A stretch of 32,000 bases of DNA. It comes from an archaeon (GTDB lineage: Archaea; Asgardarchaeota; Thorarchaeia; Thorarchaeales; Thorarchaeaceae). The translations under genes and the position numbers were made by a program. Numbering within the stretch: position 1 is the first letter of the stretch; the number at the start of each line of letters is the position of its first letter. Below, piece after piece: positions 1-7,056 of the stretch. The stretch is taken from assembly GCA_024275415.1 (NCBI GenBank), contig JAJRZD010000089.1:1-32000 (forward strand). Reading direction: 5' to 3'. The notes beneath the pieces are model-generated. The model saw only the letters and a list, made by a program, of their open reading frames with translations, was not told where the DNA came from and did no database searches.

Positions 1-2418
1 AAGGTCTGTGACTCTTTCTGAAAGTATTGTAATGCTCTCTCCAAGACTGCTCACCTCAGCCCGTTTTGCAGCTTGATCCCTCTCGGCAGTTTGCAGGTTG
101 CTCTCGACCTCAGCAAGCTGTTCCCTCAGTTCCCTGTACCTCATACGTATTGCTGATTGCTCTGCGACGAGCCTGCTTCGTTCAGGAGGCTGTGAGGCAT
201 CTAGTTTCTTCAACTCCCTTTCAGCCCTGGCTATTTTAGACTGGAATTCCTTTATCTCATCATCGAGCGCAACGATGCGCTCCTGTTGCTCAGGTATCAT
301 ATCTCGAAGTTTCTTTCGTCTCTCCCAAGTACCACTCCATCTGGTAATCCGGCTGATGAGATCCATCACTTCTTCTCTCTCACGAGCATTCTTCTCAATT
401 TGGCTCATGATATCTGAAACCTGTTTCTGGGCGCCTTTCAACTCCTTCTCTGACTCTTCAAGGCGTGTTTGAAGCGGAGCAGTAGCGATTACCCCTGTGG
501 GTTCTTGTCTAGGATAGCTGACCAGTCGGGATGAAGATGGCTCTACCCTTTGGCCCACGAGTGAAACTGACAAGATGCCATCTTTCAGAGACGTTCGTTC
601 GGAGTCCTGATATTTGGAAGTGACTAGATAGTGTCCGAAGGCCCGTCCCAGTTTATCTACGATTTCAGTATCAAGTTCAATGAGATCCCAAAGCCATCCG
701 ATAGTACCCTTTCGTTTTGGCACATCAGGTTTTTCTACCACATCCACTTCGTCTTTCAGCAGGATGATAGGTGCTTCTGCGCCGAGTTCGTTCCTTATCT
801 TCGTAAGCAGAACATATTCTCTTTCGTCCTCAACAATGAATGAGAACGCCATATGATAGGGGATGACAGCTTCAACGGCGCGGGCATACTCCTCTTTGAC
901 TGATATCACTTCAATGATTGGGCCTAATACGGATTCGAGGTTGTGTTCCTTGACAGCCTTCTTCAGTTCCAGTACATTGTCCGGTATCCTTTTCGTGCTC
1001 TCAGAGAGTTTGATTCTGATATCATCAATTTCCTTCTGGAGCTGTGCTGTCTGACTCACCAACCTGAACCGTTTCTCATTCAGGGACGCCATTTCTCGTT
1101 CGAGGTGTGCCTTCCTTGCCACGAGTTCCTTTTCATCGGTTTTTTCCATGGCACTCCAGACATGTTTCCATTTGTTCTCGATGGAATGGAGTTCTGCCTC
1201 GTCAAGTTGCAGTTTCTCTTGCAGACTCCTGTAGAGAAGATCCTTTCCTCGCAAGTCAGCTTGGAGAGCTCGAAACGTGCTTAGCACCTCAGACCTCTGG
1301 GCGTTCCATTCTGCAAATGCAGCAAGTGAGTTCTCTATCCTTGTCCGCTCTTCGTCTATCTCATCGATACTCTGGGAGAGGTTATGTTGCTCCTCCATCA
1401 TCATCTCCTTTGTTGCACTAATCCGACGCAGGTCTTCTTTTGCCCGTTCTCTCTTTTTCTTGTCAGCAGATACCCTCTTCTCCAGCTCTTTGATCTCATC
1501 CAACGTGGACTTTGTTTCTGCCTCTATCTTTGCGAGCCTTCGTTCTTCTTCCTCAATGCGTGTCGTGATACTGCCCATCTCTCTTTGTAGTTGAGAAACC
1601 TCGGTATCCAATACGTTCTGCCGTTCCTCTTCATTGACTATCTCGGACTCTAACTTGGAGATCTCCTCAAGAATCTCGCCGAGTCCTTTCTCTTTCTCTT
1701 CAATCTCGTCTTTGATGGTATTAATCTTAGATGACAGATCATCCACGGTGGCCCATTTCACTTCTATGTCAAGAGTCCTTTCTTCTTTCAGTAGTTCACG
1801 TTTTCGTTTGAGTCGTTCTATATCCCCCTGAAGCAGCTCGATTTCCCTTTGGACCATCTCAGCCTCTGCTGAAGTAGCATCAAGCCGTTCACGAGCGAAC
1901 TGAACCTTTGTTTCTTCCATGATGATCCTGTCGCGAAGGGAACTCAAACCAGTTCCTTCTTCGATAAGCTTCCTGACTTCCACCGGATCCATATCCCGCA
2001 GAGCATTGATTCGTTCCTGTGGCATGAACACAAGCGGGTTGTCGATATCAAAACCAAGAGTATCCACCAGTGTCTGCAGCTCGGCAGCCTTTACCCTTTT
2101 ACCATCGACATAGGATCTTGGTACTCCGTCCCTTGATATTTTTCTCACAAGACTACGATGTTGTCCATTGACGCGTACTCGTATTTCTACTTCTGCAAGG
2201 TTAGCCCCATGACGAATGAAATCACTCCATTTTGAGTATCGGTTCTCGCGTTGGTTCGAACCTAATGCGAACTTTAGTGCATGGAAGATGGATGTCTTGC
2301 CTGAGCCATTGGGTCCAACGATCACAGTCAAACCTGAATCGAACTGTACCTCTCCCTCGTAAAAGGAGAGGAAATTCTTTAGTCTGACCGACTCCACACT
2401 CACGTTGAACTGCTTCAC
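1..2418 (-). CDS. smc: SMC-family ATPase, SMC5/6-like (5' part, about 806 codons; runs off left edge)
   Basis: Hand translation, not in the ORF track. GTG at 2418 after GGAAGGT gives MKQFNVSVESVRLRNFLSF, then Walker A GPNGSGKT, SDFIRHGANLAEVEI and Q-loop DNPLVFMPQERI. A long coiled coil leads to a hinge (VLGPIIEVISVKEEYARAVEAVIPYHMAFSFIV, about 930-830) and the return coil. The frame was open in every segment I translated; Ser-rich antisense shadow ORFs across the region fit the same frame. Confidence 0.9.
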   Translation of the reverse strand, partial: MKQFNVSVESVRLKNFLSFYEGEVQFDSGLTVIVGPNGSGKTSIFHALKFALGSNQRENRYSKWSDFIRHGANLAEVEIRVRVNGQHRSLVRKISRDGVPRSYVDGKRVKAAELQTLVDTLGFDIDNPLVFMPQERINALRDMDPVEVRKLIEEGTGLSSLRDRIIMEETKVQFARERLDATSAEAEMVQREIELLQGDIERLKRKRELLKEERTLDIEVKWATVDDLSSKINTIKDEIEEKEKGLGEILEEISKLESEIVNEEERQNVLDTEVSQLQREMGSITTRIEEEERRLAKIEAETKSTLDEIKELEKRVSADKKKRERAKEDLRRISATKEMMMEEQHNLSQSIDEIDEERTRIENSLAAFAEWNAQRSEVLSTFRALQADLRGKDLLYRSLQEKLQLDEAELHSIENKWKHVWSAMEKTDEKELVARKAHLEREMASLNEKRFRLVSQTAQLQKEIDDIRIKLSESTKRIPDNVLELKKAVKEHNLESVLGPIIEVISVKEEYARAVEAVIPYHMAFSFIVEDEREYVLLTKIRNELGAEAPIILLKDEVDVVEKPDVPKRKGTIGWLWDLIELDTEIVDKLGRAFGHYLVTSKYQDSERTSLKDGILSVSLVGQRVEPSSSRLVSYPRQEPTGVIATAPLQTRLEESEKELKGAQKQVSDIMSQIEKNAREREEVMDLISRITRWSGTWERRKKLRDMIPEQQERIVALDDEIKEFQSKIARAERELKKLDASQPPERSRLVAEQSAIRMRYRELREQLAEVESNLQTAERDQAAKRAEVSSLGESITILSERVTDL

Positions 2419-2422
2419 ATAC

Positions 2423-3493
2423 TTACCTTCCCATCAGTCTGCTCAATCTGTCCCTTGTGCGCTTGGCTCTCATCAATCGTGTCAACCTGTCTTCGGGATT
2501 TCCAGTAAGGAGAAATGGATACCTGCTCAGGAATTCGCTATCTCCCCGAGTGAGTGGGAGGCTCCCGTTGAGGGTTTCGATGACCCTCTGGGTCTGTTGA
2601 AAGTCGTCCCCCACGGCCAACAGGTACAGCTGGTCCAAAAAATCATCGGGAAACTGCGCGTCAACTGTCGGATATGCGGGGATGTGACTCCCTTTTGCGG
2701 TGATGTTGATGTACTCGCGGGTTTCTTTCCTTGTAAGGGCAACGATGCCTATAGACTGAAGCATCTTCTCAAGTTCTGTCCTCGAGTACGGCTTTGTTTC
2801 CTGTGGGACATCTGTCAGGAATGCCGTTGCCAGATGAAGGATGTCCGAGAAACCCCATCCCTCTGTCAGCTCTGAAACCAGCGCTGGATCGAGGTCTTTC
2901 CTCTCGCCTAGTAATTGTTCAATGATAGTCTTCCGTTCTTCGTAAGTGGGGGGCTCAAATAGGTATACGCGGTCAAAGATGGACAGCACTCCCTCTTCGA
3001 TTCTTTCAGGGTGCAATGTAGCTCCCACAATCAGAATCTCGTCATTGTCCCATAAGGATTCTTTCAGGATGTCCATGAATGAAGATGCATGTTCCGTATC
3101 TTTCCGTGCAATCACATCGACCTTATCGAGATAGATTATGGCTGGAGAGTTGCGTTTTGCCACCTCTATCAAGGTTCTGAGAGAGTTGGTCATCTGTTGG
3201 GTATCACCCAGCGACTGTTCGATTCTTAGCCTGATGAGATTCATTGGCATCTCATATGCAACATGGTGAGCAAATGCTTCAAAGTCGGTTCCCGGGTTCC
3301 CGATAAGCAGTACTCTGCCACCGAACACAAGTCCCTTTGAGTGTACTTTCTCCTTAGTCGTCCCAAACTGGGTTAATGCCGAATGGAATGCCTTTGCCCT
3401 TGATATGACAGTAGGTTGCCCTACTCTGTTTGGATCGAGTTCCTCCGGCTCCTGTATGAGTATGTTCTCAGTCATGTCATGTGAATCACTCAC
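2423..3493 (-). CDS. Degenerate (pseudo-ATPase) classical AAA+ domain protein with C-terminal extension
   Basis: CDC48/Vps4/PAN-type AAA layout: VLLIGNPGTDFE (Walker A remnant), IIYLDKVD (Walker B remnant), ILIVGATLHPERIEEGVLSIFDRVYLFEPPTYEER (SRH), LTEGWGFSDI (lid). GTG start after GAGGGGTG. Confidence 0.8.
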   Translation of the reverse strand: MSDSHDMTENILIQEPEELDPNRVGQPTVISRAKAFHSALTQFGTTKEKVHSKGLVFGGRVLLIGNPGTDFEAFAHHVAYEMPMNLIRLRIEQSLGDTQQMTNSLRTLIEVAKRNSPAIIYLDKVDVIARKDTEHASSFMDILKESLWDNDEILIVGATLHPERIEEGVLSIFDRVYLFEPPTYEERKTIIEQLLGERKDLDPALVSELTEGWGFSDILHLATAFLTDVPQETKPYSRTELEKMLQSIGIVALTRKETREYINITAKGSHIPAYPTVDAQFPDDFLDQLYLLAVGDDFQQTQRVIETLNGSLPLTRGDSEFLSRYPFLLTGNPEDRLTRLMRAKRTRDRLSRLMGR

Positions 3494-3645
3494 TATTGCA
3501 CCCCTCGGCAGTTAATCTATTGAAACCTGAATACATATTATCTCTTCGAAGTAACCTTTTTTCAGCGCCATTTAGAATATCCATTTCGCGCCTGATGGTA
3601 TCAATCTTAAGAGGAAGTTCCTAATCTTGAATATGTTGTGAGGTC

Positions 3646-5361
3646 ATGACCAAAACGAGCGAACCCCTGCGTGAGAGCATCTGGAACGCGATTGCTACAG
3701 TCGAAAGTAGGGGACTCTTTGTTCACAGTGAAGAGCTTCCCCTCAAGTTCAAGCAAAGTTCTCGTTCGAGTTCAAAGACCCGTACAGTCAAGTTGCCTTT
3801 AATCGTTGGTGCTTGCATCCTGAACTCGTTGGTTCCTCGCTCAGCGATGCTTCTTGTTGGGGGACACGGTGGTGGGAAGACAACCCTGATCAAGTTACTT
3901 GGGAGAATGCTCACAGGCAAGACCCTCGATGAGATTGACGGCGGTGTACTCAGGGGACACCCGCAGCTCACCGAAGAGAAGATGGTAGCAACGCTCCGTC
4001 CTGGTCCTCTAATGAAGGACGGGCTCGAAGTAGTGGTGTGGCGTCAATTCATCACGAATTTCTGGAAGATAATCGATGAGGTCAATCGACTTACCCCCCA
4101 CGCCCAGAACATCCTCCTCTCAATGCTTGCCGAGGGTGAGTTGAAGTATTATGATGAAGTCATGCATTGCGATGACTATTGTCTGTACGCCACGATGAAT
4201 CCAACAGATAGCGGGACATTTGACTTGGCGCCCCCATTTCTGGATCGATTCGGTATCGCTGTCCCCATTACCATGCCCACTGTGAACGACCTCGAGCTGA
4301 TACTTGCATCTCGCGACGAACGGCTTTTTGGGTACGACGAGTTATGGCAAGTACCTGCGATTACGACTGAGGAAGACCTGCTCACCATATGGAATCTGGC
4401 GGACAAGGTCGCTGTTTCCCCTGATGCCTCCGAATTCATGCGTTCTCTGGTCCGTGAGTTTGGTGCCTGTATACGAGTCGATAAGAGCCAGAGTCACAGT
4501 CTGACTGTCGAAACTGGCCTTTGTGATGGCTGTCACTATAACACTGCAAAGAGCGTGTGCAACAAGGTCATCATTCCTCTAAGTGTGCGTGCGGTGAAAG
4601 ATCTCAACAGGTACTGCAAGGCTGCTGCTTGGCTGGTCGGAGCTTCTGAAGTGGGCATCGAACTGGTAAAATCCATTGCACCTCTTGTCTTCTGGCATAG
4701 AACCAAGTACGTTTCTGAAGGGGTCGAGAAGTCTCCGTATTTCGGGAATACCTACGAGTACACAAAACATCTGGTTGAATTAGCCACACAGCGATTTGCC
4801 CAGCGCAAGTCTGCAATTCAGTTGATGGACCGATTGAAACAGGGCGATGGTGGCAAGGAACTGCTCAAAGAGCTGGCGGAGATGGGAAAGAGTGACCTGC
4901 TTGTACGACTCGATTACTTGAGGCTGGCAAAGGATCTGAAGCGTCCGGTATATGCTACTATGGTGAAGAACATCGAGAAGGCAATCAAGTCAACCAATGT
5001 GAAGAACCTGACAAGACTCCAGCAAGACTTGCTTGGGAAACCTGACTTCCCGAACCGAAGCATGTTACTTGGTCGGATCTCTGAAGAGTTACATCGGTTG
5101 ACGCTCTCGCAGTTCACGTTGACCTTTGAACAATGGCAGGAACTCTGGACAGATATCAGCCTGAGAATTCCGAGAGCAACGAGCATCCTGAAGGATACCC
5201 TGAACCCTCCGCGAAGAAAGGTCGTACGAACTGATGGTATCACCCTTGTTATCTACGTGACTGGCAGTTCTCCGGAATCTCCAGTATTCATCGAGGTTTC
5301 TGGGAGTGCTCAAGCATTGGAGATAAAGAAGCAAATCGAGAAACACCTGAATGAGGGATGA
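3646..5361 (+). CDS. moxR: MoxR-family AAA+ ATPase
   Basis: Walker A GGHGGGKT, Walker B IIDEVNRL, ATMNP sensor and FLDRF arginine finger. A VWA partner lies directly downstream. Confidence 0.85.
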   Translation: MTKTSEPLRESIWNAIATVESRGLFVHSEELPLKFKQSSRSSSKTRTVKLPLIVGACILNSLVPRSAMLLVGGHGGGKTTLIKLLGRMLTGKTLDEIDGGVLRGHPQLTEEKMVATLRPGPLMKDGLEVVVWRQFITNFWKIIDEVNRLTPHAQNILLSMLAEGELKYYDEVMHCDDYCLYATMNPTDSGTFDLAPPFLDRFGIAVPITMPTVNDLELILASRDERLFGYDELWQVPAITTEEDLLTIWNLADKVAVSPDASEFMRSLVREFGACIRVDKSQSHSLTVETGLCDGCHYNTAKSVCNKVIIPLSVRAVKDLNRYCKAAAWLVGASEVGIELVKSIAPLVFWHRTKYVSEGVEKSPYFGNTYEYTKHLVELATQRFAQRKSAIQLMDRLKQGDGGKELLKELAEMGKSDLLVRLDYLRLAKDLKRPVYATMVKNIEKAIKSTNVKNLTRLQQDLLGKPDFPNRSMLLGRISEELHRLTLSQFTLTFEQWQELWTDISLRIPRATSILKDTLNPPRRKVVRTDGITLVIYVTGSSPESPVFIEVSGSAQALEIKKQIEKHLNEG

Positions 5362-5367
5362 TATACA

Positions 5368-7056
5368 TTGGACGCGTCTGGAGATTTTGAATCGGCTGCA
5401 AGACAGGCATGGTCGCAGGCTATCTCGGATTTCTATCACCCACCACTACCCGAGCCTGTCATCGAGCATGATGAGAAGGCATCTTCATTCTTCTACATTG
5501 ACTCTGGGTCTTGGACAGTCCACCTGAATACGGCTGGAGTCCCCCAGAGTATGGATGCCGAGACCGCAGAGCCATTCCTTCGTTCCATCAGCCACCATGA
5601 GATCCAACATTACCTTCTCTGCCCCTTCGATGGCGTGACCAATGGGATGATGTTCTCGGCAGCAAGGAAACATCTGCCTGATGACCTTGCCATGTTCGTG
5701 TGCAATGTCTTTGCCGATCTGGTGGTGGATTCGTTTCTTCTCAAGAGATACCAAAATATCACATGGTCACGAATAACAGAGTCAATCCGTGACTCAGCGA
5801 TTCGTACGCAGGATCATAGCCCTCTTTGGATTCTTGTAATTGCAGTGTATCATCATATGTGGGGTTTTCCACTACCAGATATTCGCATAGATGATGAAAC
5901 ACTTCATCGGGTCGCTAAGGACATAGTAATAATCGCTTCAAAGCACATCGACACAGAACGCAAGTGGCCAAAGGCAACTGATGAGATAGCGAAAGTGATT
6001 GCAGAATGGCTACCTGACCCCGAGGACGAATTGGGAGGCACTGGGTTAAAGGAATCACCAGGGGACGGTTCGTTGTTAGTCCCTTCAGACCTCGATGGTG
6101 TGATGGGCAGTCCTGTTGAGAATAGGAACGGTGACCGTGCAAGGAAGTGTCTTCATCCAGAAGAAATGTCGATATCTGAGGATGAGTTGGAACGTCTGGC
6201 GCGAGAAGTAGAGGCTCGTGGAGGTTCGTTCAAGGATCTTGAGGCTGTCTATATGATCTCGGGCGGAGGCACAATGACTAAGGACTGGATACGGTTCTGG
6301 TATAGGGCAAAATCCCGAGGACTGTTGCGATTCCATGTCACATCACTACGTCCCAGTGGGGAAGTTCCTCTGACACCTAGCGCATGGCGATTGGGAGACC
6401 CTATTGAAGAACTGGATATCGTGCAATCCCTTCAGGCGTTCCCTGTGCTTGTCCCGAATATGTCTACCCGACGATGGATACGCACGGTTTCATACGGAGA
6501 GTCAAGCCACAAGTCATTGCCTGATCTCCTACTAGTATTGGACTCAAGCGGTTCGATGCAATGGTCGATGGGGGCAAAGGATCTTCGAGGTGAATATCAC
6601 GTCGCTCTAGTTTCTGCATTTGCTGCGATGGACACCTCTCTCAGAAGAGGCTGCAAGGTCGCAGCCATAAACTTCTCAGGAAGCATCCTGAAGTCGGGAT
6701 GGACTCGGGAGCGTTCTGAGCTGGAACGAGTTCTCATGGCATACCAAGGTGGGGGCACAGTCATGCCAGTCAAGGACATCAAAACACTCTGCAATGAATC
6801 CGTTTCGCCAGTAATGAGCATCATTATCACTGATGCTGGTGTCTCGAATTGGAACCCCTTTGTCAAGACAATAGCCAGTCTTGCCAAGAATGGCCATAAG
6901 ATGTTTATCTTCCATATAGGGGGGAATGCAAAACCTTCAAAGTCCATTCAAGAACTTGAACGCGCTGGAGCAACTATCATTCCAGTTTCTTCGGCGAAGG
7001 AATTGCCCGGATTGGTGGTGTCTGAAGTCCGTCGTGTGTATTCTAAAGACACCTAA
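5368..7056 (+). CDS. VWA (MIDAS) protein with N-terminal HEXXH putative metallopeptidase domain
   Basis: HEIQH motif (5596-5610) followed by NVFADLVVD. C-terminal VWA with DSSGS, GGT and IITD. TTG start after GAGGGA. Confidence 0.85.
   Translation: MDASGDFESAARQAWSQAISDFYHPPLPEPVIEHDEKASSFFYIDSGSWTVHLNTAGVPQSMDAETAEPFLRSISHHEIQHYLLCPFDGVTNGMMFSAARKHLPDDLAMFVCNVFADLVVDSFLLKRYQNITWSRITESIRDSAIRTQDHSPLWILVIAVYHHMWGFPLPDIRIDDETLHRVAKDIVIIASKHIDTERKWPKATDEIAKVIAEWLPDPEDELGGTGLKESPGDGSLLVPSDLDGVMGSPVENRNGDRARKCLHPEEMSISEDELERLAREVEARGGSFKDLEAVYMISGGGTMTKDWIRFWYRAKSRGLLRFHVTSLRPSGEVPLTPSAWRLGDPIEELDIVQSLQAFPVLVPNMSTRRWIRTVSYGESSHKSLPDLLLVLDSSGSMQWSMGAKDLRGEYHVALVSAFAAMDTSLRRGCKVAAINFSGSILKSGWTRERSELERVLMAYQGGGTVMPVKDIKTLCNESVSPVMSIIITDAGVSNWNPFVKTIASLAKNGHKMFIFHIGGNAKPSKSIQELERAGATIIPVSSAKELPGLVVSEVRRVYSKDT

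Follow-up and report, generated by a model that had tools for sequence, protein, structure and literature searches.

The window analysed here comprises the first 32 kb (32,000 nucleotides) of contig C71. The assembly measures 3.5 Mb, is 93% complete and was assigned to Thorarchaeota from protein matches. Close to its left end lies a gene for a degenerate AAA protein, hereafter pseudo-AAA, followed on the same strand by a non-canonical SMC gene truncated by the contig end. By sequence and predicted structure, pseudo-AAA has the AAA fold of the classical clade but none of its catalytic motifs, and is a selected and non-decaying pseudoenzyme. Its gene is conserved at the first position of the 'second' SMC operon of Asgard archaea and is translationally coupled to it. 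We consider it fairly likely that the protein serves the second SMC complex as an accessory subunit or regulator without catalytic activity, and it is probably an undescribed fourth partner of that complex.

The AAA fold was readily recognized. PF00004 (AAA) was the sole Pfam family to match pseudo-AAA, covering residues 61-179 with an E value of 2.7e-12 (47.7 bits versus a cut-off of 21.2), and NCBIfam returned weak matches to CDC48, PAN, CdvC and FtsH models, all far under their cut-offs. An AlphaFold2 model built from a 99-sequence alignment (predicted local distance difference test score, pLDDT, 87.7) begins with a short strand and a single long helix, continues with the large subdomain and lid of the AAA fold, and has an extra helical domain at residues 274-353. 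When this model was submitted to Foldseek, the classical-clade proteins Msp1, PAN, p97, FtsH, spastin and Vps4 were retrieved at E ~1e-11. A shape search of the ESM Atlas ranked the protein's own Thorarchaeota cluster first and generic FtsH-like AAA clusters next. These results agree with the initial annotation, which had described the fold-defining pattern as kept. It had also reported that no MIT or CDC48 N-domain was evident; in the model residues 1-55 form only the short strand and the long helix, and no N-terminal domain of the MIT, Cdc48-N or OB type is present.

Translation and alignment to motif-intact relatives confirmed that all catalytic elements are substituted, with GNPGTDFE at Walker A, DK at Walker B, ATL at sensor-1 and GVLSIFD in the second region of homology. 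In this alignment D70 occupies the position of the Walker A lysine, K124 that of the Walker B glutamate and L160 that of the sensor-1 asparagine, and S171/I172 stand at the two arginine-finger positions. The aromatic residue of pore loop 1 has been lost as well (SLGD versus YLGE in active relatives), a change that the initial annotation had not listed.

Conservation extends to the degenerate residues. Orthologues of ~356 residues number more than 200 in Thorarchaeota-type metagenome-assembled genomes (MAGs), and across 97 family sequences the P-loop follows the pattern G-[PS]-x-G-[TS]-D-F (G in 96, G in 95, [TS] in 95, D in 96 and F in 94), so that aspartate replaces the Walker A lysine in 96/97. 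The Walker B glutamate position is lysine or arginine in 83/97 sequences and the sensor-1 asparagine position is threonine or serine in 92/97. The arginine-finger positions hold small or aliphatic residues (S/T/A and L/S/A/V), and pore loop 1 is without its aromatic residue across the family. The paired charge swap, Walker A lysine to aspartate and Walker B glutamate to lysine or arginine, suggests a self-filled nucleotide pocket, perhaps plugged by a salt bridge between D70 and K124. Strong conservation of the replaced residues, together with retention of the G-x-x-G glycine frame of the P-loop and of the pocket architecture, could also be expected of an unusual enzyme that binds or hydrolyses nucleotide via a non-canonical pocket. 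Such an enzyme would however have to work with aspartate for the phosphate-binding lysine, phenylalanine for the Mg-coordinating threonine and a basic residue for the catalytic glutamate, and with sensor-1 and both arginine fingers absent. In AAA+ enzymology any single one of these changes is known to abolish hydrolysis, and we regard this explanation as very unlikely.

Estimates of the ratio of nonsynonymous to synonymous substitution (dN/dS, Nei-Gojobori method, NG86) were made for the 44 pairs whose dS lay between 0.05 and 1.5; their median of 0.094 indicates purifying selection, and none of 53 pseudo-AAA coding sequences contained an internal stop. Motif-intact homologues exist, yet the pseudo-AAA copy shows no relaxation of selection. 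A decaying relic of a former AAA ATPase gene, with no present role, would be consistent with the disappearance of all catalytic motifs and with an in-frame stop in the neighbouring SMC gene of this assembly (see below). Decay is nevertheless contradicted by substitutions that are fixed family-wide and nearly invariant, by a median dN/dS of 0.09 and by the 0/53 stops. In addition, the family persists over lineages with saturated dS and includes a Loki-type branch that has diverged beyond Pfam detection. We give the relic explanation almost no weight.

About 100 C-terminal residues had initially been left unassigned. They are now seen to contain a discrete helical domain (residues 274-353), which is the most conserved part of pseudo-AAA and also its most constrained part, since its dN/dS lies at 0.01-0.08 compared with 0.05-0.2 in the AAA core. 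The domain carries the signature QLY..A...Y..(x)..L...PL..D..L..PF.L...........L..AK..D......G[RK] and is common to the Loki-type, Helarchaeales-labelled, Odinarchaeota-labelled and f16 relatives. Folded alone it gave a pLDDT of 82 and three main helices. The domain has no clear match among solved folds: Foldseek against the PDB returned no match better than E 3, the top matches of a wide VIA-align search were unrelated helical proteins (Z up to 5.5) so that no fold was assigned, and Pfam had no family above noise for the C-terminal 132 residues.

We then turn to linkage with the SMC gene. Among species-representative genomes 55 loci carry an orthologue, and in Thorarchaeota the SMC paralogue is the next gene in all 53 with downstream DNA. 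The gap between the pseudo-AAA stop and the SMC start is 0-22 nt in 40 loci, ten of which have a gap of 0 nt, and 0-45 nt over the 53 loci. At the junction in the window, both the 4-nt distance from the pseudo-AAA stop to the SMC GTG and the overlap of the SMC ribosome-binding site with the last pseudo-AAA codons are as first reported (Table 1). The lower gene coordinate given at that time, 2418, needs correction: it is the first base of the SMC GTG, and the pseudo-AAA open reading frame (ORF) spans 2423-3493. Synteny extends to Lokiarchaeia-type, Helarchaeales-labelled and Odinarchaeota-labelled relatives. The same gene order was found in L024, L026, L027 and the Loki-type loci L121-L124.

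In the genome counts the genes mostly occur, or are missing, together. Within the window's own family (f1, 86 genomes), pseudo-AAA and the kleisin-like gene of the operon are both present in 61 genomes and both missing in 14; the 11 discordant cases are all found at contig ends or on short contigs, three of them having been checked directly. Genus g16 of this family includes six genomes out of seven (G390-G395) without pseudo-AAA and without the kleisin-like gene. Because these genomes are up to 96% complete and the four that were searched yielded only canonical SMC matches, pseudo-AAA, the SMC paralogue and the kleisin-like gene appear to have been lost together in g16. These data bear on the possibility that pseudo-AAA is a mere passenger of the operon, whose co-transcription with the SMC genes has regulatory or historical grounds while the protein works in an unrelated process. 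Gene neighbourhood alone is no proof of interaction, and local synteny in Thorarchaeota is generally high. Against a passenger stand the survival of the adjacency across lineages with completely different flanking genes, the tight or overlapping start-stop spacing and the joint loss with kleisin and the SMC paralogue in g16, and we judge this account rather improbable.

Relatives beyond Thorarchaeota show different degrees of motif loss. P0171, the AAA protein of L024 from an Odinarchaeota-labelled MAG, keeps GPPGTGKT, DEFD, ATN, WRRFD and the pore loop YLGE as well as the C-terminal domain. P0158, from a Helarchaeales-labelled MAG and in the same operon, has kept Walker A and lost Walker B, and P0132, a distant relative in the same operon, is fully degenerate. 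Since P0171 retains all motifs together with the C-terminal domain, an ATPase-competent ancestor is plausible. A search with P0171 produced only generic AAA-domain matches at 50-75% query coverage, leaving the spread of the active form unmapped. Motif-intact AAA genes also adjoin SMC-like genes in genomes G117 (SMC-like product of 835 residues) and G069 (SMC-like product of 1067 residues); these pairs were not counted as the same operon, as their SMC-like proteins fell on long, unplaced branches in a quick maximum-likelihood tree.

G135 and G189, complete genomes from other Asgard families, contain the orthologous SMC paralogue. The gene before it has no Pfam match, yet its product is similar to pseudo-AAA of the window over the C-terminal half of the latter. 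This Loki-type family numbers more than 600 'hypothetical proteins' of ~416 residues in Lokiarchaeia- or Promethearchaeota-labelled MAGs. Alignment of the Loki-type and Thor families with hhalign extended over 303 columns with a probability of 99.2% and an E value of 2.9e-19, which identifies the Loki-type proteins as homologues over the full length, and the Loki-type P-loop remnant reads N-P-G-T-D-I. Two further Loki-type contigs displayed the same four-gene order. In total ~215 of 400 sampled Asgard genomes encode a family member, a figure that includes a few motif-intact or intermediate forms. The Thor-type gene occurs in 67/86 genomes of f1, and the Loki-type gene in 14/14 genomes of family f21 and 123/135 of f22. 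At the thresholds used no member was detected in several other Asgard families, which may reflect true absence or further divergence. Near-identical proteins from one MAG submission series are labelled variously Thorarchaeota, Promethearchaeota, Hodarchaeota and Hermodarchaeota, and taxon names on these MAG proteins are unreliable.

The SMC partner is, as far as its motifs can tell, a working, ATPase-competent motor. Its gene continues from the window onto contig C45 of the same assembly. Full-length AAA-linked orthologues of 1121-1139 residues are intact in 46/46 loci, with little or no variation in Walker A, Q-loop, signature SGGE, Walker B DE, D-loop and H-loop. The assembly encodes a separate canonical SMC on contig C120, which scores 870 bits against TIGR02169 compared with 183 bits for the AAA-linked paralogue. 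In the quick tree the AAA-linked SMC proteins of Thor, Loki, L027 and L024 formed one clade apart from canonical SMC, with a Shimodaira-Hasegawa-like approximate likelihood-ratio (SH-aLRT) support of 99. A phmmer search of the PDB with the paralogue placed prokaryotic Smc heads on top and Smc5/6 lower and was not decisive; the label 'SMC5/6-like' is taken from the literature. Two Loki-type genomes additionally encode a third SMC-like protein of ~1485 residues (L126:1141-5604 in G135 and L129:1393-5844 in G189). The two are tight sisters inside the canonical SMC clade, and G135 thus has three SMC-type genes.

The operon runs in the order pseudo-AAA, non-canonical SMC, kleisin-like and kite-like gene, and in Thorarchaeota it also has a small gene for a Zn-ribbon/winged-helix protein. 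A kleisin-like protein of 210-220 residues follows SMC wherever the DNA reaches, and the kite-like (165-175 residues) and Zn-ribbon (119 residues) proteins come next, either directly or ~2 kb further on. A profile of the 213-residue kleisin-like protein gave a weak match to the ScpA C-terminal winged helix (4i99_C, E 0.007; 5xns_C, E 0.16). The 171-residue kite-like protein showed weak winged-helix matches, and 2 of 20 members matched DUF4194 (E 0.0019), the JetB/MksE-type kite. Pfam had no family above noise for either protein. The 213- and 171-residue proteins thus fit a kleisin and a kite, respectively, as candidate assignments.

The Zn-ribbon protein P0274 (L028:11421-11780, minus strand; 119 residues) combines a zinc ribbon of the TFIIB type (PF08271, E 1.3e-7) with what is probably a winged helix. 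Proteins of this type close the cluster in Thorarchaeota and in L027. As the product of the most conserved gene of the cluster (64-82% identity), P0274 may represent yet another subunit, or else a regulator dedicated to the complex. In many Thorarchaeota loci a gene for a major facilitator superfamily (MFS) transporter is inserted on the opposite strand between the kleisin-like and kite-like genes (for instance L009:15175-16413 and L012:15233-16582). This insertion splits the operon by ~2 kb; the operon genes are contiguous in the window's own genome.

A trio of SMC, kleisin and kite in TACK and Asgard archaea has been described as an 'SMC5/6-related' complex (van Hooff, Raas, Tromer and Eme, bioRxiv 10.1101/2024.01.07.573240; Yoshinaga and Inagaki 2021, PMC8665677). 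Supplementary Table 3 of the former lists a Thorarchaeia genome with an SMC5/6-related SMC and an Nse1/3-related kite (van Hooff et al., bioRxiv 10.1101/2024.01.07.573240). Both papers describe three subunits; the term AAA is absent from both main texts and appears in the van Hooff supplements only within taxon names (bioRxiv 10.1101/2024.01.07.573240; PMC8665677). Full-text literature searches likewise found no description of an AAA gene or subunit with an archaeal SMC operon, in keeping with the statement in the initial annotation that no described SMC system was known to have such a subunit. The operon studied here resembles the published ones in having a second SMC distinct from the canonical protein, followed by kleisin-like and kite-like genes. 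It differs in its fourth gene, pseudo-AAA, which in Thor- and Loki-type lineages stands first in the operon. Because none of the published subunit lists includes this strictly linked, strongly selected gene, the description of the archaeal SMC5/6-related complex may be incomplete. SMC5/6 is the least understood of the eukaryotic SMC complexes, and its archaeal relatives have been recognized only recently.

Compared with the classical AAA ATPases (Vps4/CdvC, Msp1/ATAD1, spastin, PAN/Rpt, Cdc48/p97 and FtsH), pseudo-AAA shares the fold and detectable sequence homology, and its motif-intact relatives carry the Vps4/spastin-type 'RRF' arginine-finger motif and the pore loop. In contrast to these enzymes, pseudo-AAA is devoid of Walker A, Walker B, sensor-1, arginine fingers, pore loop and any MIT, Cdc48-N or OB domain, and has the extra C-terminal helical domain. 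There is precedent for an AAA+ fold kept as a selected protein-binding scaffold after the loss of nucleotide binding, namely the torsin activators LAP1 and LULL1 and the clamp-loader subunit delta-prime. The partner of these proteins is another AAA+ ATPase, to which they often donate an arginine finger. Pseudo-AAA, in contrast, has no arginine finger, and its genetic link is to an SMC ATPase of the ABC type. Nse5 and Nse6 are alpha-solenoid non-SMC regulators of eukaryotic Smc5/6. A functional analogy is possible, in that pseudo-AAA would likewise be an accessory, non-kleisin and non-kite subunit dedicated to an SMC5/6-type complex; we found no sequence or fold relation to Nse5/6.

The torsin activators illustrate a further possibility, that pseudo-AAA does not act directly on the SMC complex and is an inactive partner or activator linking another, active AAA protein to the locus, for example a Cdc48 or Vps4 paralogue or the MoxR-type ATPase encoded divergently from it. 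Several active AAA proteins of the classical clade are encoded in this genome. The MoxR gene (PF07728, PF07726 and PF17863 matches) and the gene for its 562-residue partner, for which Pfam gave no match, are the divergent neighbours of pseudo-AAA in 48/48 Thorarchaeota loci with enough upstream DNA, and MoxR identity is 64-82% versus 35-60% for pseudo-AAA. On the other hand, pseudo-AAA lacks an arginine finger to donate. MoxR is moreover a member of another AAA+ clade, and the operon has no MoxR pair next to it in four Loki-type loci and in L024, where the link between AAA and SMC is universal. An AAA-bridging function is thus unlikely in our estimation. Because of its absence next to the Loki-type and L024 operons, the MoxR pair is best classified as a lineage-specific neighbour and not as part of the core module.

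If pseudo-AAA is instead an accessory subunit or regulator of the SMC complex, its origin and function could be outlined as follows. The ancestor would have been an active Vps4/Msp1-like AAA ATPase, a remodeller acting on this SMC complex, and the enzyme would have turned into a non-catalytic subunit in the Thor and Loki lineages. Present-day pseudo-AAA might dock onto the SMC complex through its C-terminal domain, with the AAA shell serving only as a rigid scaffold, and the bound protein could modulate loading, ring opening or SMC ATPase activity. We infer the binding, the C-terminal docking and the effect on SMC loading or ATPase activity. The initial annotation had proposed a dedicated pseudo-ATPase adaptor, scaffold or regulator; linkage, co-loss and selection speak for that proposal, and its binding component is deduced from genomic evidence. 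Co-folding of the L009 SMC head N-half (residues 1-215) and C-half (915-1123) with the kleisin-like protein and pseudo-AAA of the same genome, using alignments as input, gave an ipSAE of 0.00 in both runs, which were made without controls and count neither for nor against an interaction.

A more far-reaching scheme can be formulated, which we put forward as a doubtful speculation. The ancestral Asgard SMC5/6-type complex would have possessed a dedicated AAA+ unfoldase that opened, loaded or unloaded the kleisin-SMC ring, and in the Thor and Loki lineages this unfoldase would have been frozen into a permanently bound pseudo-ATPase gating SMC loading or ATPase activity. Pseudo-AAA would then be a functional, not an ancestral, counterpart of Nse5/6. 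The question raised is whether an AAA-type module can load, unload or gate an SMC ring. The series from motif-intact through partly degenerate to fully dead AAA proteins within one operon offers a natural case of pseudoenzyme evolution.

Several points weigh against an accessory role in the SMC complex. A physical interaction between pseudo-AAA and SMC is so far argued from gene context. The docking role of the C-terminal domain is a guess, made for a domain without a recognizable solved relative, and the kleisin and kite assignments derive from weak matches (ScpA winged helix, E 0.007; DUF4194 in 2/20). Thorarchaeota gene order in this region is generally stable, and MoxR, its partner and NfnAB are conserved neighbours too. 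For this reason synteny within Thorarchaeota is weak evidence, and the argument leans on the cross-lineage cases. Finally, the operon may be non-functional in this particular strain, because its SMC paralogue carries an in-frame TAA.

This TAA codon (L028:13525-13527, on C45) is accompanied by another single in-frame TAA in the canonical SMC gene of the same assembly (L016:3595-3597, on C120). In the paralogue it falls just before the C-terminal head half in the context ELK*AETT, at a position where nearly all of the other 29 aligned sequences have glutamate. The context in canonical SMC is LQGLE*ILAD, and no stop occurred in any of the 34 canonical SMC matches of full length that were obtained from the other genomes searched in the family. 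The canonical-like SMC of the complete genome G189, from another family, also contains one in-frame stop. Sequencing error, strain variation or something real could be the cause. No sign of TAA recoding was seen in a crude whole-assembly census of in-frame long-ORF pairs (48 TAA, 67 TAG and 67 TGA), most of which are ordinary adjacent genes.

The features of the window that are relevant to the module are collected in Table 1. The divergent intergenic region presumably holds the promoters of both the pseudo-AAA and the MoxR genes.

Table 1. Features of pseudo-AAA and its surroundings in window coordinates.
Feature	Position	Strand	Evidence or comparison
Pseudo-AAA gene; 356 codons plus TAA stop (2425-2423), GTG start	2423..3493	-	ORF, translation, PF00004, AlphaFold2 and Foldseek, >200 orthologues
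Walker A remnant GNPGTDFE, residues 65-72; Asp-Phe in place of Lys-Thr	3278..3301	-	Active relatives GPPGTGKT
Walker B remnant IIYLDKVD, residues 119-126; Lys for catalytic Glu	3116..3139	-	Active relatives LFLDEFD
Sensor-1 remnant GATLH, residues 157-161; Asn gone	3011..3025	-	Active relatives ATN
Second-region-of-homology remnant GVLSIFDR, residues 168-175; neither Arg finger left	2969..2992	-	Active relatives WRRFD
Family-specific C-terminal helical domain, residues 274-356, ~80 residues	2426..2674	-	Conservation, dN/dS, shared with distant relatives
SMC junction: Shine-Dalgarno-like GGGAAGG run (2432-2426) within final pseudo-AAA codons, TAA, 4-nt spacer GTAT (2422-2419), SMC GTG	2419..2432	-	
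Non-canonical SMC paralogue, first 806 codons (head N-half, coiled coil, hinge), cut by contig end	1..2418	-	
Divergent intergenic region between pseudo-AAA and MoxR genes, 152 bp	3494..3645	.	ORF map
MoxR-type AAA_5 ATPase (3646-5361) and 562-residue partner (5368-7056), divergent from pseudo-AAA	3646..7056	+	

The start of C71 (window positions 1-320) and the end of C45 (L028:13976-14295) share an overlap of ~320 nt within the SMC gene; the encoded residues differ at a single position (YRE versus YRK). The break between the two contigs was probably caused by strain heterogeneity.

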